NCBI GenBank assembly: GCA_965207885.1
Contig: OZ242311.1
Span: 4,064,001-4,128,000, forward strand
Direction of reading: 5' to 3'
Length of the DNA: 64,000 nucleotides
DNA from: Candidatus Latescibacterota bacterium
Lineage (GTDB): Bacteria > Latescibacterota > UBA2968
Part shown: in pieces, positions 5,837 through 33,280 of the stretch
How the letters are laid out: every line of letters begins with the position of its first letter
Numbering within the stretch: position 1 is the stretch's first letter
Notes under the pieces: model-generated
Databases searched by the model: none
Told to the model about the DNA's origin: nothing
What the model saw: the letters and a program-made list of their open reading frames with translations, nothing else
Made by a program: the position numbers and the translations under genes

Positions 5837-5858
5837 CTCTATATGATCGAAATAAGGA

Positions 5859-14504: not shown

Positions 14505-14588
14505 TCAGGGTTATAGGAATAACAAATATCAATCACAGGCTTGAACACAAGCCTTAAATACTCCACCAAAAGGGGGAATGCCAAGCCT

Positions 14589-15527
14589 ATGATAGATGAA
14601 CTGAGTAAAATTCGCCATGCGCGTTTTCGTATGGAGATGGTGGCGGTTGACCGCTTAAAATTGCCGTCCTATAAAGGATCGACCTTTCGAGGAGCTTTTG
14701 GGCATGCGTTCAAAAGGCTGGTGTGTGTCAAGCGGGATATGGACTGTTCGACGTGTCTGATCTGCGCCCAGTGCGTTTATTATTATATTTTTGAGACACC
14801 GTTTAGCGGTGGGGAAGATAGCCGAGGTTACGCTTTTGCGCCACATCCGTTTGTGATTGAACCGCCCGGTGAGACGCGCCAGATTTACGAGATGGGCGAT
14901 GATCTACCCGTCGGCCTTGTTCTGGTGGGGCGGGCACTGGATTCTCTGCCGTATTTTATTTATGCCTTTGAAGAAATGGGACATCGGGGCTTGGGTACAG
15001 GGCGCGGCAAAGTTGCGCTGAAGCGGGTTGTTGCGCTGAGTGCGGCGGGCGAACAATGCATTTATGAGGCGGATACGGGCATATTGGATCTGGATTACCC
15101 GGTTTCCACGGGGTTGTCCAGTGGAGAAGAGATCGGGCCACTATTGCATCTGCGGTTGCAGACCCCGCTCCGTCTCAAAACACGGGGGCGCTATGCTTCT
15201 CGACTCGATTTTTCCTTGCTGGTGCGTGCGCTACTGCGGCGCATTTCAGATTTGACGCGCTTTCATTGCGGTGCGGAACTGGAGCTAAATTACGATCAGT
15301 GGATTGCGCGGGCAGAAAAAGTGCAGACTGCGGCGGTGAATACGCGCTGGTACGATTGGGAGCGGTATTCATTGCGCCAGGACCAAAAGATGAAATTGGG
15401 CGGTCTGGTGGGCGATGTGGTTTTTACCGGGGATATAGAGCCGTTCATGCCGCTTTTGCGCCTGGGCGCAGACTTGCATGTGGGCAAGGGCACGGGCTTT
15501 GGCCTGGGGCGTTATGAGATTTTGTGA
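14589..15527 (+). CDS. cas6: CRISPR pre-crRNA processing endoribonuclease Cas6
   Basis: GSTFRGAFG, Cys cluster, PHPFV, TPLRL and C-terminal G-rich loop HVGKGTGFGLG; lies upstream of cas1/cas2. Confidence 0.92.
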   Translation: MIDELSKIRHARFRMEMVAVDRLKLPSYKGSTFRGAFGHAFKRLVCVKRDMDCSTCLICAQCVYYYIFETPFSGGEDSRGYAFAPHPFVIEPPGETRQIYEMGDDLPVGLVLVGRALDSLPYFIYAFEEMGHRGLGTGRGKVALKRVVALSAAGEQCIYEADTGILDLDYPVSTGLSSGEEIGPLLHLRLQTPLRLKTRGRYASRLDFSLLVRALLRRISDLTRFHCGAELELNYDQWIARAEKVQTAAVNTRWYDWERYSLRQDQKMKLGGLVGDVVFTGDIEPFMPLLRLGADLHVGKGTGFGLGRYEIL

Positions 15528-15534
15528 GGGATAG

Positions 15535-17436
15535 ATGGCGGACATACAGGACATGTTGCATCAGGCGCGACAGCATATCGAGGCAGAGGAATTTGATCGC
15601 GCCGAGAGTTTGTGCGCCGATGTACTGGTGACCGATCCGGTTAGCGTGCTGGCGCACCAGTTGATGGCGCGGGTGTGGCTGGGGCGGAACGAACCAGATA
15701 AGGTGCGCGACCGCATCGCGTATCGCGACCAGTTGCCCTGCGATGAACACTATGTCGAATGGGGTCTGATCGCCGAGGAGGTGGAGGCGTTGGAAACCGC
15801 GGTTCAGATCTATGAAGACCTGCTAAAACGGGCACCGGAAAATGGCGTGGTGCTCTACCGATTGGGCCTGATCTGTCTGGAACGCGGCGAGCGGGACAGG
15901 GCCGTGGGCCTGTTGCAGCGCGTCCTGCGGGTGAGTCCAGATCACGCTGCGGCTGCTTTTGAACTGGCGCAATGCTATGTCGAAGACGAGTTGTGGGGGC
16001 TGGCCGCAGATGCCTATGAGCGGGGCCTGGCGAGCGATCCGGATAATGAGGAGGCGCAGACCGCACTTCAGGTGGTGATGGCGCGGATGCGAGAGTTGGC
16101 GCAATTGCCCAGCAGCGAGGTGCCGTCTGGAGAGGGGGCCGCGCGGCGGATGCGGATCTTATTTGCCGGACGGGAAGGGATGCATGCGCGGCAGTGGATA
16201 GATGAGGATGGTCGGGTCGGGTACAGTCCGGTGCAGGAGCCGCTTGCCGATCATCTGCTCTCTCTGCATCTGCAAGGCTCGGCGACTTTGGGCGTGTACC
16301 CGGTGCGGGCAGATCAAACAGTGCTTTTTGGCGTTATTGATATCGATATCCGCAAAAGTGCCCTGAAAGCGGGCGAGGCAGGGCAGTCCGTATCTGATCG
16401 GCTTCAAGAGTTGGTGCTGGCCGACGCCCGGCGACTATCACGGCGGTTCGATGAATTACACCTGCCGGTCTATGTGGAAGACAGTGGATACAAGGGGGTG
16501 CATCTGTGGCTTTTTTTTGCGGAGCCGGTGCCCGCGGCAGTGGTGAAGCGTTTTTTAGAGGCGGTTGTCCAGCGGGTCGGTCCGCCTGGGCCAGAGCTTC
16601 AGTGGGAAGTTTTTCCCAAGCAAGAGCAAGTCGCTGAAGATCAACTGGGCAATTTGATCAAGTTGCCGCTGGGGATTCATCTGAAGACCGGGCGAAGGTG
16701 TTTGTTCACGGATTTGGAAGGGCAAGAATACAGCGACCAGGAAGGTTTCCTCCAGCGCATCCAGCAGGTCGAGCGACAGGCTTTTGAACAGGCGGTGTCC
16801 CGATTGGTGGCGCCACCTGAACAAGGTGGTGTTGCCGGGTCAGTGGAAACACTACGAGAAGCTTTTCCCGAGTACGAAGCCCTTTTCAAGGGGTGTCCGG
16901 TGCTGGTCGCTCTGATGGAAAAAGCCGTGATTACGCATCATCTCACGCACGATGAACGCCTGGTGCTCAAGTGCGTTTTGGGACATTTGGACGATGGTGG
17001 GCACCGGCTGATCCACGGTATTATAGGGCATTGTCTCGATTACTCCGAGAAGATTACGCAGCAGCAGATTGAGCGCACGCCGCCCTATCCCATCAGTTGT
17101 CCCAAGATTCGCCAGCGTCTCCCCGAGGTTACTTCGACGGTCAACTGCGCGTGTGTGTTCGATTTGCCCGAAGGGGGGTATCCTTCTCCGCTGTTGCATC
17201 TCGATGCAACTTTTACCAGAGGTCGGTCACAAAGTGCAGACCGCCACGGGCCTCTGGTGGATAAATACGTGACTTTGCAGCGGGATTACCAGCGGTTGAA
17301 ACGCGAGTTGGCGCAACTCGAAGACGATTTGTACTATGCCATTACCTCGGCAGATCAGGATGAATTGCGGGCCGGTGGATGGATTTTGCGCCGGGATGGA
17401 GACGGGCGTTTCCAGGTGGAGGTTGACCTGGGGTGA
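15535..17436 (+). CDS. CRISPR-associated primase-polymerase (CAPP): TPR + AEP catalytic domain + Cys-rich C-terminal domain
   Basis: N-terminal TPRs; FAGRE..ARQW, GVYP, AEP motif I DID, motif II SGYKGVH, EVFPKQ, GNLIKLPLGIH..TGRR; C-terminal CP...SCPKI...CAC..YPSP; stop overlaps the cas1 start (GTGA). Confidence 0.9.
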   Translation: MADIQDMLHQARQHIEAEEFDRAESLCADVLVTDPVSVLAHQLMARVWLGRNEPDKVRDRIAYRDQLPCDEHYVEWGLIAEEVEALETAVQIYEDLLKRAPENGVVLYRLGLICLERGERDRAVGLLQRVLRVSPDHAAAAFELAQCYVEDELWGLAADAYERGLASDPDNEEAQTALQVVMARMRELAQLPSSEVPSGEGAARRMRILFAGREGMHARQWIDEDGRVGYSPVQEPLADHLLSLHLQGSATLGVYPVRADQTVLFGVIDIDIRKSALKAGEAGQSVSDRLQELVLADARRLSRRFDELHLPVYVEDSGYKGVHLWLFFAEPVPAAVVKRFLEAVVQRVGPPGPELQWEVFPKQEQVAEDQLGNLIKLPLGIHLKTGRRCLFTDLEGQEYSDQEGFLQRIQQVERQAFEQAVSRLVAPPEQGGVAGSVETLREAFPEYEALFKGCPVLVALMEKAVITHHLTHDERLVLKCVLGHLDDGGHRLIHGIIGHCLDYSEKITQQQIERTPPYPISCPKIRQRLPEVTSTVNCACVFDLPEGGYPSPLLHLDATFTRGRSQSADRHGPLVDKYVTLQRDYQRLKRELAQLEDDLYYAITSADQDELRAGGWILRRDGDGRFQVEVDLG

Positions 17437-18431
17437 TTCTCTATGTGACAGATCAGGGTACGGGGGTTTATCGCCGCGGAGAGCGGTTGCAAGTTCGGCG
17501 GCACAAGCAAGTGCTGACCGAGGTGCATTTGCACGATCTGGAACAGGTGGTGCTTATGGGGCAAATCGCGCTTTCTTCTCAGGCGATGAGCACGTTGCTC
17601 GAAAAAGGGGTGGATACGGTTTTTCTGAGTACCAATGGACGGTATCGGGGGCGGCTGGTTGGCCCAGCGCGGCGCAATGTGGTGTTGCGACAAAAGCAGT
17701 TTAAGTGCTATGAGGATGAGCAGTTTCGTCTGCGTGTGGCGCGGGGTGTGGTGGAGGGTAAACTCCGCAATATGCGGACGCTGCTCATGCGTCTGGCGCG
17801 GCGGCGCAAGGTGGATGTGGGCACGGTGGCGCATAGATTGCGCCGGTCAATTCAGCAGGTGGGACAGGCGACCAGTGCCGAGTCTCTGCGCGGGATTGAG
17901 GGGGCGGGCACCGCGGCTTATTTTGGTGTGCTTGGGGCTTTTTTCCCCGAAGGATTCGCGTTTCAGGGGCGCAACCGCCGTCCGCCGAGAGACCCGGCCA
18001 ACGCGCTGCTCAGTTTTGGGTATGCCCTGCTGGGCAATAGCATAGAAGGCGCGATTTATCTGGTTGGTCTCGATCCGTATCTGGGTTTTCTGCATGTGGT
18101 TGATTATGGGCGTCCTTCTCTATCACTGGACTTGATGGAGGAGTTTCGGCCCGTGCTGGTGGATGCGCTGGTGCTGGATTTGATCAACCACAATCGGGTG
18201 CAGAGCGCGGATTTTGAAGCGCGGGATGGGGGCGTATTTTTGCAGGGCGAGGGCCGCAAGCGGTTGATTGAGGGGTACCAGCGACGTCTTGAAGACCGGG
18301 TAACTTATCCCGTGGGGGGCGAGCGGGTGGAGCGGATTTCTTACCGGCGTTGCCTCGAATATCAGGTGCGTCGATTGGCGCGGGTGATTATGGGCGAGGA
18401 GGCTCAGTACAGGGCTTTTCTGGTGCGTTGA
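17433..18431 (+). CDS. cas1: CRISPR-associated endonuclease Cas1
   Basis: LYVTDQG, LRGIEG, RNRRPPRDPANALLSFGY, GLDPYLGFLH, SLSLDLMEEFRP. Confidence 0.97.
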   Translation: MILYVTDQGTGVYRRGERLQVRRHKQVLTEVHLHDLEQVVLMGQIALSSQAMSTLLEKGVDTVFLSTNGRYRGRLVGPARRNVVLRQKQFKCYEDEQFRLRVARGVVEGKLRNMRTLLMRLARRRKVDVGTVAHRLRRSIQQVGQATSAESLRGIEGAGTAAYFGVLGAFFPEGFAFQGRNRRPPRDPANALLSFGYALLGNSIEGAIYLVGLDPYLGFLHVVDYGRPSLSLDLMEEFRPVLVDALVLDLINHNRVQSADFEARDGGVFLQGEGRKRLIEGYQRRLEDRVTYPVGGERVERISYRRCLEYQVRRLARVIMGEEAQYRAFLVR

Positions 18432-18474
18432 GATGTTTGTAACGATCCGCAGGCATGTCCCTGCGGGTGTAAGC

Positions 18475-18522
18475 AGGGATGGACACAGAGAAAAAATGAG
18501 GGATGGACACAGAGAAAAAATG
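18475..18522 (+). repeat. Perfect 24-bp tandem duplication at the cas2 start
   Basis: AGGGATGGACACAGAGAAAAAATG at 18475-18498 and 18499-18522. Confidence 0.9.
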
Positions 18523-18795
18523 TTTGTGACGATTTGTTTTGATATCAGTTCTGACCGCACGCGCCGGCAGGCGACCCGGGTGCTGGAGGCTTATGCAACG
18601 CGGGTGCAAAAGAGTGTGTTCGAATGTCGCATTGCCGAACGGCAATTTGTCGAGTTGCGGCAGCGCATGAGTCAAATTGGTCTGGCTGAAGGCGATCTGG
18701 TGCGCTATTATACGCTGTGTCGCGCATGCGAGCGTAAGATCGAGTTTACCGGCGGTTCTCCCCCGCAGGATGAAAAAGATCATCTGATTGTTTGA
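18520..18795 (+). CDS. cas2: CRISPR-associated endonuclease Cas2
   Basis: MFVTICFDIS..R, RVQKSVFEC, D.VRYY.LC..C; alternative in-frame start at 18433. Confidence 0.95.
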   Translation: MFVTICFDISSDRTRRQATRVLEAYATRVQKSVFECRIAERQFVELRQRMSQIGLAEGDLVRYYTLCRACERKIEFTGGSPPQDEKDHLIV

Positions 18796-19054
18796 TAGCT
18801 GGTCTTTGCGACCCGGATTAGAAAGGGTTTGTCAATATGGCGCATTGAATTTCTACTGCTTTTAATCGGTGGGAATTAGCTACGTCACTTAACCCTATTC
18901 TGGGTCGCGAATTTGTAATTTCTTGTCCTACAATAGATTAACAGAAAGGGACTTCTATGATTGAAGAAAAATGGATGGATAAACGCCTGTCAATATGGCC
19001 TGAGTCGCAAAAGCACCTCAAACAGACTGTGACTCAACAAGTTAGAAAGGAGGG
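18796..19054 (+). promoter_or_regulatory. CRISPR leader
   Basis: AT-rich non-coding stretch between cas2 and repeat 1; GCGACCC/GGGTCGC inverted motifs; TGTCAATATGGC direct repeat at 18830 and 18988. Confidence 0.8.
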
Positions 19055-19248
19055 ATTGGAAGGAATTGACCCGCTCATAGAGGATTGAAACTTAATATAC
19101 CTGTTGGCAGGTTATCGGAGTGGTCATTTGACGAATTGGAAGGAATTGACCCGCTCATAGAGGATTGAAACTTAATATACGTTTCATGGATCTTCCGGTC
19201 GCCGGCGTAGATTGGAAGGAATTGACCCGCTCATAGGGGATTGAAAAC
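19055..19248 (+). CRISPR. Short CRISPR array: 3 repeats, 2 spacers
   Basis: Repeat ATTGGAAGGAATTGACCCGCTCATAGAGGATTGAAAC (37 bp) at 19055-19091 and 19135-19171; variant ...ATAGGGGATTGAAAAC at 19211-19248; spacers of 43 and 39 nt. The ATTGAAAC 3' end gives + orientation. Confidence 0.96.
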
Positions 19249-19269
19249 TTCGTCATCAAGGGATATGTC

Positions 19270-20991
19270 GTGCAGATCGCGGAACCCGTATTGAAAGCCA
19301 TCCAGGACAGAGGCAGACGAGGATTGCCCCTTGAGAATATTTATCGACACCTCTACAACCCGGACCTCTTTTTACGCGCTTATGGACGGCTGTATCGAAA
19401 AGCTGGCGCGACCACACAGGGCATTACAAAAGAGACCACAGATGGCATGTCTATGGCGAAGATCAATGCCCTCATCGAGGCATTCCGCTGCGAGCGGTAT
19501 CAATGGACGCCTGTTAAGCGCATCTATATTCCCAAAAAAAATGGGGGGCGGCGTCCGCTCGGCATACCGGTTTGGTCTGATAAACTGGTGCAAGAAGTTA
19601 TGCGATCTTTGTTGGGCGTCTATTATGAACCCCAATTTAGTGACCTGTCCCACGGCTTTCGGCCTCAACGGGGCTGCCATTCTGCACTTGCGGAAATTTT
19701 GAGATGGAAAGACATAGACTATTTTATCGAAGGCGATATCAAAGCCTGTTTTGACAGTATTGATCACGAATGTCTGCTGTCTATTTTGAAGGAGAAAGTC
19801 CGCGATGATCGGTTTATCGACTTAATTGGGGATTTGCTCAAGGCCGGATGCGTCGCGTACGGGCGTTACGAATCTACTCCGAGTGGTACGCCACAAGGCG
19901 GTCCCATTAGTCCACTTCTCGCAAACGTTTATCTCGACAGGTTGGATGAGTTCGTCGAAAATACGCTTGTGCCTCTTTACACAACGGGCGAGAAACGCAT
20001 AGAGGCGAGTTGGAAGACGCCAGAGGAGTTGCAGAGGGTTCTGAAGATATTGGATACGCAGGGTCCCGATTTTAGACGTATTCGCTATATCCGATACGCC
20101 GATGATTTTTTGATCGGTTTTACCGGGCGAAAGGCAGAGGCTAAAGAGATCAAACAATGTCTCAAAGAATTTTTGCAAGAGACGCTGAAATTGGAACTGT
20201 CAGAGGACAAAACCTCAATTACCCACAGCCGCAAAGAGACAGCACACTTTCTCGGATACGAGATCAAGAATCTGAATGGGTCAACGCAAAATACACTGAG
20301 CCTGAGTGTGCCGAAAAAAGCCGTGAAAGAGAAGTGTAGCTTGTATCAAAAACGCGGGCGTGTCACATACTGTGCCGAACTGCTGCATGACAGCGATTGG
20401 GAAATCATAAGTCTTTTTCAGAGTCGATATATCGGATATGTGCAATACTATATTTTCGCACACAATGTCCATATCTTAAACGTATTGCGCTGGGTGATGA
20501 GTGCGTCTTTGCTCAAGACGCTTGCGAAAAAGCATAAGACACATGTGAATCAACTTATGAAGCAGTATAAAGCGACTATCCAGACGCCTTATGGCCCGCT
20601 GACGTGTTTGGAGATGCCTGTTTTGTGTGAAGGTGGGCAATTGAGGACGGCGCGTTTTGGTGGCTTCTCTCTCAGGCCGAGGGAAGGCATACCCCTTGCA
20701 GACCGCGACCCAAACAGGGAGATGCGGTGCAAGGGGATAGAACTGATCCAGCGCTTGCTGTCAAACCAGTGCGAATGCTGCGGCGCAACAGGCCAGGTGG
20801 AAGTGCATCATGTCCGAAAACTTGTCCATAGAGAAGGGCAAGTATCAGAGCACACATGGATGCGAGACATGGTTACACGAAAGCGAAAAACCCTTATCGT
20901 GTGCAAAACATGCCACCAGGCAATCCATTCTGTGACAAAAACAAGGAAGAAAAACAGGTATCGGGGAATGCACGCAACACAACGCCAGTAA
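19270..20991 (+). CDS. Group II intron-type reverse transcriptase/maturase with domain X and HNH endonuclease (LtrA/ML-like), apparently lacking intron RNA
   Basis: RPLGIP, SHGFRP..GCH, EGDIKACFDSIDH, GTPQGGPISPLLANVYL, YIRYADDF, LSEDKT, FLGY; domain X (YVQYY, SLLKTLAKKHK); CECCG..VEVHHVRKL..CKTCHQAIH. Confidence 0.93.
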   Translation: MQIAEPVLKAIQDRGRRGLPLENIYRHLYNPDLFLRAYGRLYRKAGATTQGITKETTDGMSMAKINALIEAFRCERYQWTPVKRIYIPKKNGGRRPLGIPVWSDKLVQEVMRSLLGVYYEPQFSDLSHGFRPQRGCHSALAEILRWKDIDYFIEGDIKACFDSIDHECLLSILKEKVRDDRFIDLIGDLLKAGCVAYGRYESTPSGTPQGGPISPLLANVYLDRLDEFVENTLVPLYTTGEKRIEASWKTPEELQRVLKILDTQGPDFRRIRYIRYADDFLIGFTGRKAEAKEIKQCLKEFLQETLKLELSEDKTSITHSRKETAHFLGYEIKNLNGSTQNTLSLSVPKKAVKEKCSLYQKRGRVTYCAELLHDSDWEIISLFQSRYIGYVQYYIFAHNVHILNVLRWVMSASLLKTLAKKHKTHVNQLMKQYKATIQTPYGPLTCLEMPVLCEGGQLRTARFGGFSLRPREGIPLADRDPNREMRCKGIELIQRLLSNQCECCGATGQVEVHHVRKLVHREGQVSEHTWMRDMVTRKRKTLIVCKTCHQAIHSVTKTRKKNRYRGMHATQRQ

Positions 20992-20996
20992 TCCAT

Positions 20997-21020
20997 GTAG
21001 GGGCGAGGCATGCCTCGCCC
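20997..21020 (+). repeat. GTAG-type REP-like hairpin
   Basis: GTAG-GGGCGAGGCA/TGCCTCGCCC perfect palindrome; related copy at 33255. Confidence 0.7.
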
Positions 21021-21081
21021 GTGCCCTTCATTGCGGTGTGGTATTGCGTTGCACCACCCAGGCTGAACATAAGGAGAATTC

Positions 21082-21228
21082 ATGGTCAAACAGATATTAT
21101 TATGTACCGTCGGAGGCTCTCATCAACCGATTCTCGAAGCAATTAAATCATCGTCACCGTGCCATGTCTGTTTTTTTGCACGGACCGCCTCCTTCACATC
21201 CCATAACCAGCGAAGGAACAATCCATGA
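21082..21228 (+). pseudogene. Truncated, frameshifted paralog of the N-terminus of the downstream TIGR02710-like CARF gene
   Basis: RBS AAGGAG, then MVKQILLCTVGGSHQPILEAIKSSSPCHVCFF versus MSETILLCTVGGSHQPILAAIETNSPKLVCFFCT; one more T in the T7 run would give CFFCTD. Confidence 0.82.
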
Positions 21229-22487
21229 GCGAAACCATCCTTCTTTGCACCGTTGGCGGCAGCCACCAGCCTATCTTGGCGGCCATTGAAACAAACAGTC
21301 CGAAACTCGTTTGCTTCTTCTGTACCGAAGGACAGGCTGGTTCCGAGGTTCAAGTAATCGGCGAGGGCAAAGTTATCAAGGACAAACTGCAAGACAGCAA
21401 AGCAACATTGCCCAATATCCCCACCCAAGCGCGAGCGCAGGGTTGGAATGGTACCTATAAGATAAAGATCGTCCCTCCAGACGATTTGGATGGGGCCTTC
21501 TTTGTTATCCGAAATACGATCCTAAAATTGGCCCATAAGTATCCCAATGCCGAATTGGTGGCTGACTACACCGGTGGCACAAAGACGATGACGGCGGCCT
21601 TGGTCAGTGCTGTGTTGGATACTGAGCGCGTCGAGCTCCAACTCGTTGCTGGCGAACGCAGAGATCTCATACAAGTGATTCCGGATACCGAATTGTCGGT
21701 CGTCGCCAGCGTGACCCGATTGCTGATTGATCGTGACATCAAGCAATTTCTGGCCGCTTGGCGTCATTTCGGCTACCACGAAGCAGCAGAAGGGCTGAAG
21801 AAAGTGCGTATCGCGGCTGATTCGCCCGACTTTGAGCGTTTGCACCAAGCATATATGTTGAGTCAGGGCTTAGCATTGTGGGATAGATTCGATCACGCTG
21901 GCGCACTTGAAAAGATTCAACCGCTGGAGCAAATTAAAGCTGCCTATCCGTATATGATGCCGACGCTGGGACAGCTTAAGGCAGACCGAGAACAAGCTCT
22001 CTTATTCGACCTCTGGTTAAATGCCGAGCGGCGTGCGGCCCAGGGTCGCTTTGACGATGCGATTGCGCGGTGGTATCGCATGATGGAGTGGACAGCCCAA
22101 TGGCAACTCCGAACGAAACTCAACGCCGATACCGGGGACTTTTCAGGCGATTTGCTGCCGAAGCAGGTTCAGGCGGCCCCGGATTCAGATGGTAAAATTA
22201 AAATTGGGCTTTGGAAGGCATGGCAAGTCGTAAAATACCGTTGCGAACTATCGGGTCCTGCTCAGGACTTCATCAAAAAGCACGGATCAAAGCTCCTCGA
22301 TTTACTCGAGATTCGCAACAATTCGATACTGGCTCACGGTTTTTGTCCTGTGAGTTCTTCGAACTGGCAAGAGGTGCATAATTGGACACAAGATAAATTC
22401 CTGCCCGTTCTGCGTACCCTGGCCGAAGAAGTGGGCTTGAAAAGCGAGCCGAAACAACTCCCGACCGAATTTCCAGAGAGCATCTGA
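21225..22487 (+). CDS. CRISPR-associated CARF-HEPN effector (TIGR02710/Csm6-like)
   Basis: CARF motifs CTVGGS.QP and DYTGGTKTM; RFDDA.AR.YR; HEPN motif RNNSILAHG. Confidence 0.88.
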   Translation: MSETILLCTVGGSHQPILAAIETNSPKLVCFFCTEGQAGSEVQVIGEGKVIKDKLQDSKATLPNIPTQARAQGWNGTYKIKIVPPDDLDGAFFVIRNTILKLAHKYPNAELVADYTGGTKTMTAALVSAVLDTERVELQLVAGERRDLIQVIPDTELSVVASVTRLLIDRDIKQFLAAWRHFGYHEAAEGLKKVRIAADSPDFERLHQAYMLSQGLALWDRFDHAGALEKIQPLEQIKAAYPYMMPTLGQLKADREQALLFDLWLNAERRAAQGRFDDAIARWYRMMEWTAQWQLRTKLNADTGDFSGDLLPKQVQAAPDSDGKIKIGLWKAWQVVKYRCELSGPAQDFIKKHGSKLLDLLEIRNNSILAHGFCPVSSSNWQEVHNWTQDKFLPVLRTLAEEVGLKSEPKQLPTEFPESI

Positions 22488-22641
22488 ATTGTGTCCGACA
22501 ATCACAGCCTTGCTGATACGTTTGTACGAGGCGGATTGTCACTGATGAGACACAGAATGGTGTGAATGGTAGAGATATATTGTCAGGGCACAAGTAGCCG
22601 TGCTGGCAGATTTATTTTGACAAAAATGAGAGGGTAATCAG

Positions 22642-24246
22642 ATGGCAACAGGCAAAATCATGAATTGGAAAGGAAAATACGGATTTATTGAAAATGATGC
22701 TGGAGGGCAAAATGTTTTCTTACACATCAATGAAGTTGATCAAGACGATAGAGGATTCTTGACTAAGGGCACAAGAGTTGATTTCGATATACAAGAAGTG
22801 CCTCAAGGATTGGCAGCAAATAATGTTCGTTTCTTGAAATTTCACAATCCATATACCTTTGTCCCTACCCCTCCGCGTCAGGATGCAATAAAAGCGGGTG
22901 GGTTTGCTGGCGATTTTGATCCCTTGGAGTGTGGTCTCAGCCATGCATGTCTTGATCCGGATCTATGGACAGGACATCTGCCAATCAAGCTGACCACGGT
23001 CACACCCCTGGTATTGCCGAAAACTGATGGTGAAGAACGTTTGTCAACTGAGCACCAAACTTATGATGTCCTCAACTATTTGCCGGAATCGTCCCTGCGC
23101 GGCATGTTGCGAAGTGCCTACGAAGTGGTGACGAACTCGCGCTATAGTTGTTTTAGCAACGATGACCGATTGAAGTTTCGTTTAGGTCGAGAAAAGAGAA
23201 CATATGAAAAGAGTCCCAAAGACCTTCTCGACTTCTCACTAAGATCAGCGGATAAGATGAGTAAGCTGTCTCCCGCGGATCGTTTGTTCGGGTGGGTACC
23301 TCAGCAATCCGGTAGCGACCAGGGGTACAAGGGCCGCATACGGGTCGTTTGTGAAGATGATGCACGATCTGAGATTATCCAACACTTTGATGGTAAAGAC
23401 TTGCCATTGACGATCCTCGGAGAGCCAAAACCCGCACAAGGCCGTTTTTATGTTGCTAAAGATAAAAAAGGTACGCCGCAAGAAGATGGCATTAGCAAGG
23501 AGCAAGCTGGCTACAGTGGAGGTAAGGGCTTACGAGGTCGGAAGCAATACTGGCACCATAAAGGGCTGGAAGCGGGTCAGGCACGAGACTATTGGAAATC
23601 GTCAGTAGATGACCGAACGCAGCAACAAAACAATGGTCGGTATCAAGAATATCGCCGTCCCAATAAAAATGGAGAGCCACAAAAAGATGCTCAAAACCGC
23701 AGCATTACCGGATGGATTAAGCCAGGTACGGTTTTTAAGGCATCCCTATATGTACAAAATCTGCAAACTGAAGAAATTGGTGCATTGCTTTGGCTGCTAT
23801 CGCTTCCCTCAGACCATTACTTCCGGCTGGGATATGGCAAGCCATTGGGTTTTGGCAGCGTGAGGATAGAGGTTGATGAGGAGCGATGTGTAAATGGATG
23901 TCTGCCACTCGGCACTGGCAAAGATTGGAAAAGCTACTATGCAACCTTTTATACTTCCCCACCGGCAACACTAAATGAGGACCAACGAAAGGGCTGTATT
24001 CAAAAATTTAAGGCCAGTATGGTAGCTGCGTACGATTCAAAACATTTTAATAATCTACCTTTTATCAGCGGATTTCTGAAAGTTCTAAAGGGTCCAAAAA
24101 AAGATGCACCCATTCACTATCCACGGCTGGAATACAAACCCAATCCCAAAGGCGAGAATTTTCGATGGTTCGTCGCAAATGAAAAAGGTAAAAGACTTGC
24201 GCTTCCAGCGGTTACAGCGAAGAAGGGGCTACCTTATCAACCCTGA
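22642..24246 (+). CDS. Type III-D Cas7-family RAMP (TIGR03986-like) with N-terminal cold-shock domain
   Basis: MATGKIMNW..KYGFI...VFLH cold-shock RNP motifs; FHNPYTFVP, SSLRGMLRSAYEVVTNS, SPADRLFGWV, LRGRKQYWHH, LGYGKPLGFGS. Confidence 0.88.
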   Translation: MATGKIMNWKGKYGFIENDAGGQNVFLHINEVDQDDRGFLTKGTRVDFDIQEVPQGLAANNVRFLKFHNPYTFVPTPPRQDAIKAGGFAGDFDPLECGLSHACLDPDLWTGHLPIKLTTVTPLVLPKTDGEERLSTEHQTYDVLNYLPESSLRGMLRSAYEVVTNSRYSCFSNDDRLKFRLGREKRTYEKSPKDLLDFSLRSADKMSKLSPADRLFGWVPQQSGSDQGYKGRIRVVCEDDARSEIIQHFDGKDLPLTILGEPKPAQGRFYVAKDKKGTPQEDGISKEQAGYSGGKGLRGRKQYWHHKGLEAGQARDYWKSSVDDRTQQQNNGRYQEYRRPNKNGEPQKDAQNRSITGWIKPGTVFKASLYVQNLQTEEIGALLWLLSLPSDHYFRLGYGKPLGFGSVRIEVDEERCVNGCLPLGTGKDWKSYYATFYTSPPATLNEDQRKGCIQKFKASMVAAYDSKHFNNLPFISGFLKVLKGPKKDAPIHYPRLEYKPNPKGENFRWFVANEKGKRLALPAVTAKKGLPYQP

Positions 24247-24290
24247 AGCAATGCCGTTCGCAATTCCCAGACAAAGAGGAGACAATAAAT

Positions 24291-25382
24291 ATGGGAACAC
24301 AACTTATTTTTACTGTTGGAACCAATCCACTACCGATATGGGTGGCGTGGCATCATTTGAAAGACAAACTATCAGAGCCTGTTCAGGTTCGACTTGTGCA
24401 TACAGCGGACACAGAAGATGAAAAAGATCGGCTAAAAAAGTATTGTCACGGTGCGGCCTTTCTTGATCCGATTCAAACGTCCGACGGCGACCCTCGTACT
24501 GTACGTGAGGATATCAGGACTATCGCTGATGGCCTCTCAGACGAGACCAACCTTCTGCACATTCACTACACTGGCGGTACCAAGGTGATGGCCGTTGAAA
24601 CTGTCGCCGCCCTTGAAGCCACTTTACCGAAAAATATCCACTTGGATACCTCCTATCTGGACCCACGCGCCACATCAGGTCCCGCTATCGTGAATCGGGC
24701 TGGGAAAACTTGGGTCCGAGATACTCGTAAGAATATTACTGCTGATCTTGCTCGTATCGCTCTCCTCAACGGTTTTACTCTCGGGCCGTTTAAACACAAA
24801 TATTGGGATAAAGAGGCCAACTGCTATGAAACGGACGACTGTCCGGCTCCTGGAATACCCACTCAAAATCAATTGGACAAGGGCAGAAAGGCTATTACAG
24901 GCGGTGGGCGTATCACATGTTACAAACTCTTAGAACACGGTGCCTATGCCGCATTTAAGGATGCATTGGAGGAGGTTTCTACGAGCAATTCAAATCGTAA
25001 TAACTATAAACTTTTCCACAATGTGTATGTCCGACGTATAAGAGCATCACAGAGTGCAAAGCCCTTCGAGCTTGATGTAGTAGCAGTACTGGGGTATCAG
25101 ATTGTCGTTGTTTCATGTACTCTTGATGGGAGTCATGACAAGATAAAACAAAAAGGTATGGAGGCCATTTTGCGAGCAAGGCAACTCGGTGGTGATGAAG
25201 CGCGGGCCATTGTTTTGTGTAGTGCTCACCAGAATGATGCTAAACTCATTGAAGATGAGTTAAGGGATGAAATGGGTAGTGCGAGCGAGCCTTTACAAGT
25301 TTGGGAAAGGAATAGGTGGCCTATGCCTATGTTGTCAGATGCGTTTTATCAATATCTGCGTAATGACCTGCATTGGAAGTGA
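24291..25382 (+). CDS. CARF + PD-(D/E)XK-like nuclease effector (Card1/Can2/DUF1887-like)
   Basis: VGTNPLP and HYTGGTKVM (CARF); C-terminal FELDVVAVLGYQIVVVSCT...E...RARQLGGDEAR. Confidence 0.82.
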   Translation: MGTQLIFTVGTNPLPIWVAWHHLKDKLSEPVQVRLVHTADTEDEKDRLKKYCHGAAFLDPIQTSDGDPRTVREDIRTIADGLSDETNLLHIHYTGGTKVMAVETVAALEATLPKNIHLDTSYLDPRATSGPAIVNRAGKTWVRDTRKNITADLARIALLNGFTLGPFKHKYWDKEANCYETDDCPAPGIPTQNQLDKGRKAITGGGRITCYKLLEHGAYAAFKDALEEVSTSNSNRNNYKLFHNVYVRRIRASQSAKPFELDVVAVLGYQIVVVSCTLDGSHDKIKQKGMEAILRARQLGGDEARAIVLCSAHQNDAKLIEDELRDEMGSASEPLQVWERNRWPMPMLSDAFYQYLRNDLHWK

Positions 25383-25396
25383 GTGGGGATATACTT

Positions 25397-27031
25397 ATGT
25401 CAAATTCTCTTTATATGGGTCAATGTGTTGCAGTCTTCGGTACTGCGAGTCTTCAGCGATACATCTTTCAGAGCAATCGACTGAAAGAGAATATCGGTGC
25501 GTCCTATCTCGTAAAATACTGGCTTGACGAGGGCTTGGTTGAGGCCATAAAGCAGTCTGGCTGTACGGTTGATACGACTGTGTGGGATGAGTACAAAACA
25601 AATCCCTCAATGTCTCGGCCTGCAAAGCCAGTGGACATATCGAAAGATGTCAATTTCATCTATGTCGGTGGGGGTAATGCTGCGTTGCTGTGCAAAAGCC
25701 AGGAGACTGCTAAAGATGTTGTCAAAATATGGAGCCACAAGCTACTCGAACATGCACCTGGACTCCGGGTGGCCGTTGGGTATGCGGATGTTGAGAACTC
25801 ATTGGCTGAGGCATATCGTTCCGCGTTAGAAAACCTGTCACAATGCGAGGAAGCATTGCCGTTTGGGGACACCTTGTACAGCTTACCCGTTGTTCGCACT
25901 TGCACGACTACTGGGCTTCCTGCGAGCGTACCCAGCAAAGAAGAGAACAATGAGGAGGAGTGGATATCGCAGTCTGCGTCGAGCAAGCGAAATCAAGTCG
26001 GCTCTGAACGCAAGTCAGGTGCTGCCCAAAGGGATATTAGACGCGAATTCAAATCGGTTCTGCAAAGAGGTCAAAACTTTGCCATTGAACTCGACAAACT
26101 GGGTGGGCGTAAAGGAGAATCGCATATTGCTGTCGTGCATGCTGACGGCAATGGAATGGGCAAGCATCTTATAGATGTGGTGAACAGTGCAGAAGATGAT
26201 GAGGAATTTCTCCATCACATCCGAGCATTTTCGGCCTCTGTGTCGCGTCTGTCCCAGAGTGCCCTACAGGAGACATTGCAATATCTACAGGAAGAGTTGC
26301 CGAACCTGAAAGGGGATTTGTCGCTGGGAGAAGAAAAAATTTTTCCTTTGCGTCCTATCGTGTACGGAGGCGATGATTTGACATTTGTATGCGATGGTCG
26401 CGTGGGTCTCGATCTGGCGGCCTTCTATTTGAAGGCGTTTTCCAAAGGCAAGATCAAAGTCCGTGGTAAGGATGAACCCGTTGATGCCTGTGCGGGGGTA
26501 GCCATTGTGCCTACAAAATTTCCCTTTGCCCGCGCGTATCATTTTGCTGAAGAACTCTGCGGATTGACCAAGTCATACCTTCGTGAGAGAGATTTAACTG
26601 GCAGTTGGCTGGATTTTCAGATTATCCAGGAAGGTATCACCCGATCCATTTCGGCACTGAGAGCCGCACAGTATCGTAGCTTTGAGGGACAAACACTGCA
26701 TCAGCGTCCTTATCAGGTACCGGAAAAATGGGACGTTTTTGTTGAAATTTTGAAGGAATTTCAAGCGTCGTGGCCCCGCAACCGTGCCAAAGGGCTTTTG
26801 CAGGCTCTAACGCAGGGACCTGCGGCAACGCAACGCTTCGTTGAGGGCGCACGGTGGCGTGATGTGAAGTTACCATCGTCTTCGGTAAGTGGTACAGGTT
26901 GGACGGGTGGAGATCCTCCTGATCGCACCACGCCGTATTTCGATCCGCTCGAAACACTTGATTTCTATCTGGAAGTGAAGAAACCAGCAAAAAATGGCGA
27001 GAAAGCAGGTAAGGAGATCAAGAATGACTGA
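25397..27031 (+). CDS. cas10: Type III-D Cas10 (Palm cyclase, no HD domain)
   Basis: QRYIF.SNRLKENIGAS, YVGGGNA, VHADGNGMG, VYGGDDL, KFPFARAY; short, with no N-terminal HD domain. Confidence 0.92.
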   Translation: MSNSLYMGQCVAVFGTASLQRYIFQSNRLKENIGASYLVKYWLDEGLVEAIKQSGCTVDTTVWDEYKTNPSMSRPAKPVDISKDVNFIYVGGGNAALLCKSQETAKDVVKIWSHKLLEHAPGLRVAVGYADVENSLAEAYRSALENLSQCEEALPFGDTLYSLPVVRTCTTTGLPASVPSKEENNEEEWISQSASSKRNQVGSERKSGAAQRDIRREFKSVLQRGQNFAIELDKLGGRKGESHIAVVHADGNGMGKHLIDVVNSAEDDEEFLHHIRAFSASVSRLSQSALQETLQYLQEELPNLKGDLSLGEEKIFPLRPIVYGGDDLTFVCDGRVGLDLAAFYLKAFSKGKIKVRGKDEPVDACAGVAIVPTKFPFARAYHFAEELCGLTKSYLRERDLTGSWLDFQIIQEGITRSISALRAAQYRSFEGQTLHQRPYQVPEKWDVFVEILKEFQASWPRNRAKGLLQALTQGPAATQRFVEGARWRDVKLPSSSVSGTGWTGGDPPDRTTPYFDPLETLDFYLEVKKPAKNGEKAGKEIKND

Positions 27032-29396
27032 GTATTTTTTGCAAATCACGCTGCAATCGCCGCTGACCTCTGCCGCAGGTGAGGGACGTGTGGGCGTGGT
27101 TGACCGTGACATAGCTTTTGATGACCTCGGGCTACCTATTCTCCCCGGCAGGCGACTCAAAGGGCTGTGGCGCGAAGCCTATCGCGATGTCGCCGATGCG
27201 TGGGCTTTATACGGTGAATCTTCAATACCGGTAGAGCATATTTTCGGCGAGTCAGGACAGGGAGATGCTTGCATGTTTGTTGCCAATGCTGAATTGCAAG
27301 AGGCGTCTTCTTTAAGAGAATGGTTGAGATATTTACAACATGATAAAAAATTTCACCTTGACGATGTTGTGGAGCACTTTGCCTCTGTGCGTGCCCAGAC
27401 CGCGATTGACCGCAGGACTGGCGCAGCACTTGATAATACGCTCCGTCTCACCCGTACCTTGAAAGCAGATCTGGTATTTCGAGCGCGTGTGCGCTTCTTT
27501 GAGGCTCCAGATGATGAGTTGCTCAGTGCCCTATCTCTGGGATCCGCGGCTTTGCAACACATGGGAACAGCGCGGACCCGCGGTCTCGGCAAGGTCCGTT
27601 GTCGTTTGCTTGTACGCGATGCGAGTGGGCAATGCCGGGACTTGACAGACGAAGTCCTGAGCAAAAATGCGCTTCCTTCAATTACCCAAACGGCCTCCAA
27701 TCAACCAGCCCAAACCTCAAAGGCTCATGTGACTTCCTCATCTCGTTCAACTTGTACGGTCCCCACCCACATATTGCGCTATCGGATTGTGTTGACAGCA
27801 CCAGCAGTTATCCCAACAGTAGATGGCGACCCGAATACTGTTGTGACCCGGAGAGATATTCCCGGAAGCAATATCTGGGGGGCTGCTGCCTATCGTTACC
27901 TGAGCCAAGCGAATCATACGCCTGAAGATGGTGCGTTTCGCCACGCCTTTCTCGATGGGGGCTTGCGATTCTTGGCGGCTTACCCAGAAGCAGATGATCC
28001 CGAAGTGTACAATGGAATGCCTCAACGCCTGATTCCCATTCCCCACTCAATACGCAAATTTAAGGAAGGCGAAGAACTGATAGATTTTGTGGAATCATCA
28101 CCAGGGGAGGATCCAATAAAGCGTCTTGATCGTCGATACGCTATCATTAGTGGAGTCAGTTTGAAAACACAAGCTGTCAAGACGGAATTGAATTACCATC
28201 ACGCCCGCGCCAGAGATCGTCGCATAGGTCGTGCTCTTGGTGCAATGGTTCCAGATGGCGGTGCCTTCTTCACGTATGAGGCCATCGAGGCTGGACAGTC
28301 GTTTCAAGGGGCTATCCTGGGTTCCAAGGATGATCTAAAAGCTCTGCAATCCTATTTAAAAGGGGGGCAGATAAGAATAGGACGGTCGCGTAGCGCACAG
28401 TACGGTGAGGCGGAATTTGAATGGATTGATGGTGCCCCAAAGGAATTGAGCAGGTTTGTTGAGTGGGATGGATTCGTTGAACAGCAGCCCGCCAGTGTCC
28501 CAAATTCTGGTGCGTGTCTTATCATCACCACCTTATCGCCCTTGTTGACCGTCAACGATTATGGGCATCCGGAGGCGCGCTTTCCCGAGCGTGAGTTGGC
28601 TAACGCTCTGGGGCTGGAGACTTCGGATCTCAGACTATCGCGCAGTTATACCCGCACAGATTTGATTGGTGGATATAATTCCCACCTGCGCCTCCCGCGT
28701 CAGCAATGGCCCGCTATCGCCTCTGGTAGTGTTTTTGTGTTTAAGGCTGAAAAAACACTTGATCAGGAACGTCTCTTGCAATTAGAACACAATGGCCTGG
28801 GGTTACGGAAAGGAGAAGGGTATGGTCGCATTGCTGTCAATCGACAGGGTAGCCTCGGTTTGTCAGGCTGCGAAGAAACCCAACTCGACAATCTCGATAG
28901 GCTACCCGATTCGCCAAACTCAGCGATGCCACAGAGTGTCCATGATCTGATATATGGCGTCGTGAGATCGCGTTGCCTAACTGAGATGCAGCAGCGTGCT
29001 ATAACTATCGCCAGGTCGAACGATAATATCCCAAAAAATGCCCTTCTTGGACGGATGCGTTTGTTTCTTCAACAGAACTCACGCGACGAAAGTTTGAGAC
29101 AACTACGTGATCCTGCAAAGGACCAACTAACGAAATATCAGATTGACATGAGTGGTTTCGGTATAACGGATGATTGGTCGCCGCAAATGACGATGTATGA
29201 ATTGTTCAAGAAGGCCTGGACAGAACCGGAGTCTCTAACGCGACAAATGATTGAAAGTCATGTCCATGAGGATATTGTCGAAGATGCCGACATGCGCCAG
29301 ACTCTAATTAACAAACTGGTTGCAGACGATAGCGCGGAGATGTGTACAGTGTTTCTCGATCACCTGCTTACAGCACTGCGCCGTAAATCAAAATAG
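27024..29396 (+). CDS. csx10: Cas7-Cas5(Csx10)-Cas11-like fusion of type III-D/III-Dv
   Basis: N-terminal Cas7 (GEG...DRDI, LPGRRLKG, TAID..TG, G..RTRGLG); middle Cas5 RAMP (IPGS..WG, IGRSRSAQYG, GLGLRKGEGYG); helical C-terminus consistent with Cas11. Confidence 0.85.
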   Translation: MTEYFLQITLQSPLTSAAGEGRVGVVDRDIAFDDLGLPILPGRRLKGLWREAYRDVADAWALYGESSIPVEHIFGESGQGDACMFVANAELQEASSLREWLRYLQHDKKFHLDDVVEHFASVRAQTAIDRRTGAALDNTLRLTRTLKADLVFRARVRFFEAPDDELLSALSLGSAALQHMGTARTRGLGKVRCRLLVRDASGQCRDLTDEVLSKNALPSITQTASNQPAQTSKAHVTSSSRSTCTVPTHILRYRIVLTAPAVIPTVDGDPNTVVTRRDIPGSNIWGAAAYRYLSQANHTPEDGAFRHAFLDGGLRFLAAYPEADDPEVYNGMPQRLIPIPHSIRKFKEGEELIDFVESSPGEDPIKRLDRRYAIISGVSLKTQAVKTELNYHHARARDRRIGRALGAMVPDGGAFFTYEAIEAGQSFQGAILGSKDDLKALQSYLKGGQIRIGRSRSAQYGEAEFEWIDGAPKELSRFVEWDGFVEQQPASVPNSGACLIITTLSPLLTVNDYGHPEARFPERELANALGLETSDLRLSRSYTRTDLIGGYNSHLRLPRQQWPAIASGSVFVFKAEKTLDQERLLQLEHNGLGLRKGEGYGRIAVNRQGSLGLSGCEETQLDNLDRLPDSPNSAMPQSVHDLIYGVVRSRCLTEMQQRAITIARSNDNIPKNALLGRMRLFLQQNSRDESLRQLRDPAKDQLTKYQIDMSGFGITDDWSPQMTMYELFKKAWTEPESLTRQMIESHVHEDIVEDADMRQTLINKLVADDSAEMCTVFLDHLLTALRRKSK

Positions 29397-29415
29397 CAAA
29401 ATAAGGACGAATAGC

Positions 29416-30870
29416 ATGGCGAATACTAAGACCTCCAAGATTAAAGACACCATTGTGCGTCGTTTATATGCGCGAGGGAAGTGGAAGCTGGACAGTGTGG
29501 CGCACTTTGGTGGAGATGAAACAGGTATAGCAGATATGTGTCTCCTGCGGGATGCGGAAGGAAAACCCTTTATTCCAGCCGCATCTATCGCTGGCGTAGC
29601 GCGGAGTTTTCTGGCCCGGGTGAGTAAGCCCTGGACGAAATACCAAAAGGGGGATGAGGGCAAAATACTCAAACAGCTTTTTGGCGGAGCGGGCGAAAAG
29701 GATACTATGAGTGCCTTAATTGTTGCCGATGCTGCTTGCAAAAATTCCCAAACGTCAATCCGCGATGGCGTGCGCGTGGATACTCAATCGGGTTCTGCCG
29801 CTGAGGGGACAAAGTTCGATGTGGAAGTTGTCGAGCGCGGGGCTGAGTTTGAGTTGCGTCTGGAGTGCGTTATCCGTGATGGAGACGATAGCCAAGGATT
29901 GGAGAAGTTATTTTTAGCCCTCTTACATGGATTCAAAGCAGGTGAGATCCGATTGGGCGCACGTACCCGTCGGGGCTATGGACGCGGCAAGGTAGCGTCC
30001 TGGAAAATACGCGATTTGAAGATGAACGATCCAGAGGATGTTATGGCCTGGCTACGCGATAAGGTCTGTTCTCGTCCCGCGAGTGATTTGACACCATGTC
30101 CTTTGCCATCTGATCAACGACAATACTTCCGCCTTGAAGCAGATTTTATTCTGCGGACGTCTCTGTTAATCCGCAGTTCACCTTCTGATCCAAAATCTCC
30201 AGACATGGTTCATCTGCACTCTGCTGGAGAGCCTGTTGTTCCCGGTACATCCTTTGCCGGTGCATTTCGACATCGCGCATCCCTGATCGCAAGTACCATT
30301 GGCTGGCCTGAGGATTCGGTGAGTGAAATATTCGGCCCTGTGCATGAACAAGATGTCAAAGACCCACAAAAAGATTTGTGGGCAAGTCGGGTATGGATTG
30401 AGGAAAAGCTGGTGAAGAATGTGGAATCGCGGTGGCAGGATCGCGTTGCTATTGATCGGTTTACCGGAGGTAGTTTGCAGAGTGCCTTGTTTAACGAAAA
30501 ACCCATTTTCCCACAGAAATCTACGCCACATCTCAAGTTAAAACTGACGTTAGAAGAACCGGATGATGCGGAAATCGGCTTGTTGTTCTTAACTTTGCGC
30601 GACTTCTGGAATGGACATGCCGCTCTGGGCGGAGAAACGAGCAATGGTCGCGGTACTCTCCAGGGTTTTAAAGCTGAGTTGCAATTGAAGCGGCGCAAAT
30701 CGTCAAAGGCTGAGTGGGAGTTTTCGCAGTATAATAGCGGTATGACTCTTGTTGGGTGTAGTGGTGATGCTTCATTCTTCGAATGTTGCGTACAAAAAGC
30801 CCAATCGCCTTCTAAACATCCCGATGGATCACGGCGGCCTAAAAAAGAAAAGGTGACCACCGATGACTAA
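29416..30870 (+). CDS. Tandem Cas7-Cas7 RAMP (Csm3-like, type III-D)
   Basis: Two RAMP units: PFIPAASIAG...LGARTRRGYG and PVVPGTSFAG...RVAIDRFTGG...LGGETSNGRG. Confidence 0.88.
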   Translation: MANTKTSKIKDTIVRRLYARGKWKLDSVAHFGGDETGIADMCLLRDAEGKPFIPAASIAGVARSFLARVSKPWTKYQKGDEGKILKQLFGGAGEKDTMSALIVADAACKNSQTSIRDGVRVDTQSGSAAEGTKFDVEVVERGAEFELRLECVIRDGDDSQGLEKLFLALLHGFKAGEIRLGARTRRGYGRGKVASWKIRDLKMNDPEDVMAWLRDKVCSRPASDLTPCPLPSDQRQYFRLEADFILRTSLLIRSSPSDPKSPDMVHLHSAGEPVVPGTSFAGAFRHRASLIASTIGWPEDSVSEIFGPVHEQDVKDPQKDLWASRVWIEEKLVKNVESRWQDRVAIDRFTGGSLQSALFNEKPIFPQKSTPHLKLKLTLEEPDDAEIGLLFLTLRDFWNGHAALGGETSNGRGTLQGFKAELQLKRRKSSKAEWEFSQYNSGMTLVGCSGDASFFECCVQKAQSPSKHPDGSRRPKKEKVTTDD

Positions 30871-31414
30871 AGAAACACACAAAAAACTCGATGAAAAATT
30901 GGTTTGTTCAAATCTGTCTAATGTAACAGAGAAGGACACGGCGTGGGTCTTATTGCAGGAGCCGGGGTTTATCGGCTTTGGCGTGGTGCAGTCGGACAAA
31001 ATCTGCTGGCCTCCAGATGTGCAACCGGATTGGACTCGGGTTAGCGATCTCCGCCTATTTGGTGAAAAAGGTGAATGGCATGTATGGTCTCACTGGAACG
31101 AAGGTTGGCAAAGCCGTTGGCTGAAAGCGGAGGACATAGACGATGCCCTGACAGAGTGTCACGCACTCTGGGGAACAGATTTTCAATCCGGTACACCCCC
31201 TTGGGTAAAGTTGATGGAAGATCGCGGAATAGAGATATGGCTACCATTAGTAAATTTGGAATGTCGTCATCTACCGCTACGCCTAAAACTTAAACAGGTG
31301 ATTGGCTATGATGATAAAAGCGGCCTTGCAGGTATTACCGATGCTGCTCTTGTGGCACTGGTTAGCAAAGATGGTAAAACAGTGTGGGATCCACCTGATT
31401 TTCCGCTGGACTGA
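30863..31414 (+). CDS. csx19: Type III-D protein Csx19 (TIGR03984-like)
   Basis: LRLFGEKGEWHVW, LWGT, EDRG motifs; size and position after double cas7. Confidence 0.82.
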   Translation: MTKETHKKLDEKLVCSNLSNVTEKDTAWVLLQEPGFIGFGVVQSDKICWPPDVQPDWTRVSDLRLFGEKGEWHVWSHWNEGWQSRWLKAEDIDDALTECHALWGTDFQSGTPPWVKLMEDRGIEIWLPLVNLECRHLPLRLKLKQVIGYDDKSGLAGITDAALVALVSKDGKTVWDPPDFPLD

Positions 31415-33244: not shown

Positions 33245-33254
33245 AAATTGGTCC

Positions 33255-33280
33255 GTAGGGGCAGGTCTTGTGCCTGCCCG
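33255..33280 (+). repeat. GTAG-type REP-like hairpin
   Basis: GTAGGGGCAGG-TCTTGTG-CCTGCCC; related to the 20997 copy. Confidence 0.6.

Follow-up and report, generated by a model that had tools for sequence, protein, structure and literature searches.

In a 64,000-nucleotide (nt) stretch of the genome of a Candidatus Latescibacterota bacterium (contig OZ242311.1, positions 4,064,001 to 4,128,000; hereafter called the window, to which all positions without a locus or genome name refer), a type III-D CRISPR locus occupies positions 14541-31414, with every gene on the + strand. Within it, at 19270..20991 (+), lies a gene for a reverse transcriptase (RT) of the group II intron type without a ribozyme, an identification that draws on Pfam and NCBIfam profiles, on the lack of any Rfam match, and on clade, context, and selection. 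We consider it probable that this RT is a recently domesticated intron-encoded protein, kept as an optional part of a cassette that consists, in this order, of a gene for a CRISPR-associated primase-polymerase (CAPP), cas1, cas2, a leader, a CRISPR array, and the RT gene itself. The domain architecture of the protein, the loss of the ribozyme, the membership in a single clade, the fixed position behind the array, and the cassette-like inheritance are all directly visible in the loci compared here.

The RT, 573 amino acids (aa) long, matches the Pfam families RVT_1 (PF00078; E value of 2.8e-32), Intron_maturas2 (PF01348), and AI2M-like HNH (PF21368), and has the RT-X-(D)-En architecture of a mobile group II intron protein; the maturase/thumb and the intact HNH endonuclease go beyond what a first-pass annotation of the window had described. 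In an alignment of 24 sequences, neither the YADD motif nor the CxxC/HH/CxxCH residues of the HNH domain vary, and a clade-specific deletion of about 23 residues precedes RT motif 5. The protein scores 277.3 bits on the equivalog model for group II intron RT/maturases (TIGR04416, group_II_RT_mat), below its cut-off of 300, and the nearest solved structure is LtrA (313 bits in phmmer, compared to 52 for Cas6-RT-Cas1 and 40 for the RT of CaCART-CAPP).

Neither RF00029 nor any other Rfam family matched at an E value of ≤1 in positions 17500-22500, and RF00029 did not match at the gathering threshold in the other five clade loci described below, bringing the count of ribozymes to zero in six loci. 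With no Rfam match and no conserved flanking DNA, this open reading frame (ORF) lacks the setting of a mobile intron, in which the ORF occupies domain IV and is directly followed by domains V and VI of the ribozyme. Relative to the loci L004 and L005, DNA identity resumes only at position 19255, 12 to 15 nt before the RT start, and stops at 20941, some 50 nt before the stop codon; as similarity across loci is confined to the stretch from about 10 to 15 nt upstream of the start codon to a point short of the stop codon, conserved RNA on either side of the gene is absent. Intron domains concealed in the leader or in the 3' flank were considered and rejected for want of Rfam matches and of a conserved flank, and the lack of conservation outside the RT ORF makes a ribozyme that escaped the models unlikely.

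Database homologs of the RT range from 60 to 90% identity, after which identity falls sharply to approximately 50 to 54%, at which level the sources name the proteins group II intron RT/maturases. The 25 close RTs form one clade with a support of 100 and a stem of 0.40 (FastTree, 125 sequences). The genomic context was read in six members (the window, G075/L004, G083/L005, G140/L033, G133/L034, and G122/L035+L062), which span all four main branches of that clade. The closest homologs with a readable context (61 to 88% identity) do not lie in complete introns at unrelated sites, one of the outcomes that the first-pass annotation had named as speaking against it; in all five of the other genomes, they share the same position and have no intron RNA. 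Control relatives at 46 to 53% identity, by comparison, carry domain V/VI just after the ORF in 19 of 20 cases, the twentieth being a contig that stops 115 nt past the ORF. A relative from the same phylum with 53 to 56% identity (L032) is likewise a true intron, and complete introns were found only among relatives at ≤56% identity. A scan of JGI metagenomes with the RT kept 80 loci, of which the best reached 53% identity over its full length and none belonged to the clade; these loci were used only as intron controls. Among 100 generic intron loci (657 kb in total, with many short contigs), none had an array and one had cas genes. This sole cas-bearing locus (L011; Herpetosiphon aurantiacus DSM 785, 1299-11887) contains an RT that belongs to a true group II intron, with domain V at 11796-11887; the intron lies about 1 kb past the last gene of a III-D-like effector set (cas10, csx10, cas7x2, Cas7), and no array is present in the 21.8-kb locus.

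The genome to which the window belongs also encodes two RT paralogs (L002 and L003) with 53% identity to the RT, and both are true introns with domain V/VI (68 bits) directly after the ORF. They are 2,397 nt long, run from GTGCG to CTAC, and are 100% identical to each other. The RT clade, by contrast, is represented by a single copy in each of the six genomes, in none of which was it found in multiple near-identical copies at unrelated sites. We also considered a maturase acting in trans and rejected it as unlikely, since the only RF00029 matches in the own genome are the two complete and self-sufficient introns, without an ORF-less domain V, and since domain V matches are missing altogether from three of the five further genomes that carry the RT (in both cases among the 150 candidates scored of roughly 300 to 400 from a first look). 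In the 168 genomes of the phylum that were searched, no intact copy of the RT clade turned up elsewhere. A partial copy is present in another Latescibacterota genome (L026 9992-10205), which has kept no more of the RT gene than its first 214 nt, at 91% identity; they are joined to another ORF, in a region that lacks a CRISPR locus. This fragment lies about 3 kb from a homolog of an FGE-sulfatase gene that is found in the window at 32258-33244 and looks like the remnant of a deleted locus.

In all six loci with a readable context, the RT gene lies downstream of the array of the CAPP-cas1-cas2 module, parted from cas2 by that array and not adjoining cas1. The arrays of the RT-bearing relatives hold 18 to 55 repeats, and in G122 the CAPP and RT halves of the locus are on separate contigs, each of which breaks in an array. 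Between the window and L004/L005, DNA identity is 86 to 90% over 14584-19093, a stretch that opens at the start of cas6 and extends into repeat 1. The effector genes tell a different story: cas10 of L004/L005 is only 26 to 28% identical to that of the window, in L004 the CARF-HEPN-CARF gene is a different one and the III-D effector is divergent, and the genes for Cmr4, Cmr6, and CARF-RelE upstream in L033 represent a III-B module. The RT-bearing cassette is thus found joined to two III-D variants and one III-B module. Since DNA identity ends at the RT and the effectors are unrelated, the RT is inherited together with adaptation genes and array rather than with the effector.

The partner of the RT in this cassette, the CAPP gene (15535..17436, +), encodes a class A CAPP of the TPR type (TPR-CAPP, type A1). 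NF040561 scores 365 bits against a cut-off of 200 and matches residues 70-597, Pfam reports AEP-TOTE and TPR, and the protein combines TPR, AEP, and a C-terminal domain and is encoded next to cas1-cas2. A search of the 168 phylum genomes yielded nine other orthologs with 78 to 93% identity, and the DxD, SGYKGVH, and KLPLG motifs are intact in 10 of 10 orthologs. The RT and the CAPP are separate ORFs, 1.8 kb apart and with cas1, cas2, and the array between them, rather than a fusion of a CRISPR-associated RT (CART) with a CAPP.

Pairwise ratios of nonsynonymous to synonymous substitution (dN/dS, Nei-Gojobori) are 0.11 to 0.19 for the whole RT gene, which excludes decay, and are similar for the CAPP gene (0.09 to 0.16) and for cas1 (0.08 to 0.15). 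Taken separately, the RT core, X, D, and En parts have ratios of 0.06 to 0.28, showing that all four domains are under purifying selection. The unrooted order of four lineages is identical in the RT tree and in a tree of CAPP plus Cas1, an agreement that has a one-in-three chance of arising at random.

On the basis of these observations, we propose that an endonuclease-bearing intron entered the array beside a TPR-CAPP-cas1-cas2 module in an ancestor within the Latescibacterota. The intron would then have lost its ribozyme, with the protein gene having since been retained by selection as an optional cassette part, and the whole cassette, from CAPP to RT, would recombine with different type III effector modules. 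In line with published RT-Cas1 and CART systems, the RT might copy invader or host RNA into DNA to be integrated by Cas1-Cas2. The CAPP might contribute by priming, by making the second strand, or by filling gaps, and the HNH nuclease, having been retained, might generate 3' ends or trim prespacers. It is from the analogy with those systems that we infer a role of the RT in RNA-to-spacer capture and a division of labor with the CAPP. More tentatively, the clade may represent a further, very recent, and independent intron capture. All three activities of the intron protein (RT, RNA-binding thumb, and HNH nuclease) would then persist and act together with Cas1-Cas2 and an active primase-polymerase in converting RNA into spacers.

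Several observations weigh against this account. The RT sits at the trailer end of the array and not beside cas1. The six contexts that were read represent two families of one class, and the remaining 19 of the 25 clade members are database proteins only. Additionally, tblastn searches up to an E value of 10 revealed no RT in four of the nine other CAPP cassettes (G081, G087, G091, and G135, with 78 to 82% CAPP identity), the arrays of which hold 60, 28, 62, and approximately 246 repeats; as these RT-less cassettes hold such large arrays, the RT is not needed for acquisition. On the tree of CAPP plus Cas1, RT presence requires at least two changes. The RT also evolves faster than, and out of step with, the CAPP (for G122-G133, a dN of 0.24 versus 0.056), even though the branching order of the four lineages agrees. 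Finally, spacers matching the genome that carries them were considered as a mark of RNA capture and failed to discriminate. They make up one of two spacers in the window, three (all perfect) of about 31 in G140, one (at 92%) of 54 in G133, and none in G075, and they are also present in the RT-less array of G081 and in an RT-less second array of the own genome; being found both with and without an RT, they carry no RNA-specific signal. At the same time, sister cassettes with and without the RT provide natural material on what the RT adds to a CAPP-Cas1-Cas2 integrase, and they also bear on a possible division of labor between an RT and an active primase-polymerase.

A special case of domestication for spacer capture would be a strict sequence of steps, as suggested in the first-pass annotation, in which first-strand cDNA, made by the RT on an invader RNA template, receives a second strand that the CAPP primes or fills before Cas1-Cas2 integrates the duplex. 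The catalytic motifs of both polymerases are kept in all loci examined, both genes are under purifying selection, and a CAPP is described as binding Cas1 and as priming and extending DNA in vitro (PMC8211822). However, published CRISPR RTs are described as self-priming on RNA and DNA, and the Prim-Pol in CART-CAPP fusions as inactive (PMC10415136), so two polymerases need not share the work in this manner, and the large arrays of the RT-less cassettes argue in the same direction. We therefore regard this particular sequence of steps as possible but doubtful.

We find it unlikely that the RT with its HNH domain has been kept for another role within CRISPR immunity, either as an ancillary or abortive-infection effector alongside the CARF nucleases or in connection with the array transcript. 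A CARF-HEPN gene directly follows the RT gene in three of the six loci (window, L033, and L035), and the HNH nuclease is under selection. Moreover, a simple promoter/terminator scan, uninformative overall, gave no promoter-like site on the + strand from the leader to the RT, and cotranscription of the RT with the array is therefore possible. Such a role is difficult to reconcile, however, with the inheritance of the RT with the adaptation cassette while effector and ancillary genes differ between loci, and with the absence of a CARF or sensor domain from the RT protein (Pfam).

A function outside CRISPR altogether, with the position at the array reflecting nothing but the landing site of the ancestral intron, appears quite improbable to us. 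Ribozyme-less group II-like RTs without a link to CRISPR are on record (G2L4, according to PMC6013744), the RT is absent from four of nine sister cassettes, and the 214-nt fragment in L026 persists without a CRISPR locus; all six intact copies, though, occupy the same place by the CAPP array despite effector exchange, and the phylum genomes searched hold no intact copy anywhere else. Last, that the RT still serves a mobile intron, through a missed ribozyme or in trans, or is a decaying remnant of one is very improbable in spite of its full RT-X-D-En architecture and its 53% identity to a live intron protein in its own genome, given the single RT copy per genome, the lack of conserved flanking RNA, and a dN/dS that excludes decay.

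The domestication of an intron-encoded protein in a CAPP cassette, the reading we prefer, has to be set against systems that are already known. Type III adaptation modules that combine an RT with an AEP primase are not new, and the first-pass statement that no system with both polymerases had been described was mistaken: a CAPP-RT type was defined by Zabrady 2021 (PMC8211822), CART-CAPP fusions were studied biochemically and structurally by Zabrady 2023 (PMC10415136), and clade-12 CRISPR RTs are characterized in a review as "adjacent or fused" to an AEP domain (PMC8632793, citing Toro 2019a). The reading of the RT as a stable and selected cassette part, and not a chance intron, was supported. 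Like other CARTs, the RT has a YxDD motif, lacks intron RNA (0 of 6 loci, versus 19 of 20 controls with it), and is linked to cas1-cas2 and an array in six of six loci. Acquisition of RNA-derived spacers by CRISPR RTs is covered in the same review (PMC8632793).

CART-CAPP fusions and clade-12 RTs (e.g., Caloramator australicus CCJ33120) likewise combine RT and AEP with cas1-cas2 in type III adaptation operons, but they are described from Firmicutes as fused or adjacent, with a short RT without N-terminal extension and an inactive Prim-Pol (PMC10415136), whereas here two genes are split by an array, the TPR-CAPP has intact motifs, and the 573-aa RT has a thumb and an HNH domain. Similarly, the RTs of Toro clades 1-13, including the RT-Cas1 and Cas6-RT-Cas1 proteins (Marinomonas mediterranea, Vibrio vulnificus type III-D), are intron derived, without intron RNA, and linked to type III systems. 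The described CRISPR-RT clades, however, are reported to lie next to or be fused to cas1 and to be related mostly to class C or F introns (PMC6013744), unlike the clade studied here, which keeps X and HNH domains, is 50 to 54% identical to live intron proteins, and follows the array. Sequence comparison suggests an origin separate from the 15 described CRISPR-RT clades, compared here only via the solved CRISPR RTs (52 and 40 bits, versus 313 for LtrA). With the mobile intron proteins that have an En domain (LtrA; L002 and L003), the RT shares the RT-X-D-En architecture, the YADD and HNH residues, and 53% identity to the own-genome copies; it differs in having no ribozyme, in its single copy per genome at a fixed CRISPR position, in the clade-specific loss of about 23 residues, and in falling short of the TIGR04416 cut-off. 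Regarding the CAPP, MpCAPP from the type III-B system of Marinitoga piezophila is also a TPR-CAPP, with TPR, AEP, and a C-terminal Cys-rich domain, encoded beside cas1-cas2, but its operon is described with an Argonaute partner and no RT (PMC8211822). What differs from the published systems is a separate, full-length, intron-type RT with X and HNH domains, its position after the array, its motif-intact TPR-CAPP partner, and the phylum. The passages retrieved from Toro 2017, Toro 2018, and Silas 2017 contain no mention of an endonuclease domain in a CRISPR RT, although such sequences may have been listed earlier; a literature search combining Latescibacteria, CRISPR, and RT found no paper.

One of the two identical introns of the own genome is located in a CRISPR array. 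This complete group II intron (G000:C1:5764502-5766898, corresponding to L061 4503-6899 and L003 1404-3800), 2,397 nt long and 100% identical to the L002 copy, lies antisense within a 38-nt spacer of the second array, upstream of a second CAPP-cas1-cas2 module whose CAPP has 43% identity to the first. On the 5' side of the intron, the spacer contributes 28 nt, of which 22 are identical to the insertion site of the other copy, and the spacer thereby mimics the homing site of the intron. A literature search, judged by titles and the opening lines of abstracts, brought up no paper on a group II intron inserted into a CRISPR array or spacer. With this copy, the entry of an intron into a CAPP-linked array can be observed live, and because the intron homed into a spacer of a sister CAPP array, the own genome shows an entry route. 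The published model for the origin of CRISPR RTs, as laid out in PMC6013744 and PMC8632793, has an intron invading near cas1, followed by ribozyme loss and coevolution, and rests on old, strongly diverged clades. Here, with a clade that is about 50% identical to live introns and keeps maturase and nuclease, and with an active intron in the second CAPP array, early steps of domestication become directly observable.

In the same second array (G000:C1:5762834-5763027), the leader-proximal spacers 3 to 5 have perfect self-matches over 25 of 40, 31 of 40, and 40 of 40 nt. The full-length match lies in dnaA, in sense orientation, and the other two spacers are chimeric, each combining a perfectly matching part with an unmatched end of 9 or 15 nt. 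In the window, the array (19055..19248, +) consists of three repeats of 37 nt ending in ATTGAAAC and two spacers, at 19092-19134 (43 nt) and 19172-19210 (39 nt); its last repeat is degenerate, with 21 nt between it and the RT start codon. Spacer 1 perfectly matches the own genome over its last 34 nt (G000 5004468-5004501), in sense orientation within a 391-aa ORF without a Pfam family. The first 9 nt of spacer 1 (TTAATATAC) are identical to the first 9 nt of spacer 2, which fits an integration event in which the duplicated unit was 46 nt long and not the repeat of 37 nt.

As for the remaining genes of the locus, the order and common orientation given in the first-pass annotation were confirmed, with each gene at its place on the + strand, and the translations bear out its intact catalytic motifs (VIDIDI and DSGYKGVH in the CAPP, IRYADDF in the RT). 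The locus opens with cas6 (14541..15527, +; PF10040, E value of 9.8e-20; 88 to 90% identity to L004/L005). Homology of cas6 with its relatives begins at about 14584, and a true start near 14589, as placed in that annotation, is plausible. After the CAPP gene follow cas1 (17433..18431, +; PF01867, E value of 4e-101) and cas2 (18433..18795, +; PF09827 on aa 30-102). Cas2 proteins of relatives align only from residue 29 or 30 of the long cas2 ORF, and the alignment makes 18520 the likely true start; a perfect 24-nt tandem duplication (18475-18522) spans the cas2 ribosome-binding site and ATG. The leader (18796..19054, +; about 260 nt) is 86 to 88% identical to those of L004/L005 at the DNA level up to the first repeat.

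Downstream of the RT gene, direct reading of the sequence revealed a fragment of the N terminus of a second CARF gene (21083..21190, +), which resembles the start of the CARF-HEPN gene that follows at 21225 and, located between that gene and the RT gene, looks like a recombination scar. Profile matches identify the intact gene (21225..22487, +) as CARF-HEPN (Csx1/Csm6-like, TIGR02710) and the next gene (22642..24246, +) as a fusion of a cold-shock domain with Cas7 (TIGR03986, Cas7_IIId). Next in line are a CARF-PD-(D/E)xK nuclease gene (24291..25382, +; PADLOC CARF4--CARF_PDDEXK, E value of 1e-42) and the genes for Cas10d (25373..27031, +; PADLOC Cas10d, E value of 6e-124), an 800-aa Cas7-Cas5 (Csx10) fusion (26994..29396, +; PADLOC Cas5_IIId, E value of 2e-104, with Cas7_IIId on aa 15-216), a double Cas7 of type III-D (29320..30870, +; PADLOC Cas7_IIId, E value of 6e-116), and Csx19 (30863..31414, +; PADLOC Csx19, E value of 2e-19). 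Cas10d, the Csx10-type Cas5, the III-D Cas7 proteins, and Csx19, as recognized by PADLOC and NCBIfam, assign the locus to type III-D.

The CRISPR locus is flanked by cytochrome genes of a planctomycete type, which together with the named relatives assign the organism to the Latescibacterota. Furthermore, at 33248-34960, 1.8 kb past csx19, the window encodes a 570-aa AAA ATPase with a PD-(D/E)xK-like C terminus. A homolog of this ATPase, in two pieces with 68 to 74% identity, is found in the CRISPR locus of G133 (L034 7890-9109), between the RT gene and a CARF nuclease gene, and the ATPase gene of the window may be an ancillary gene.

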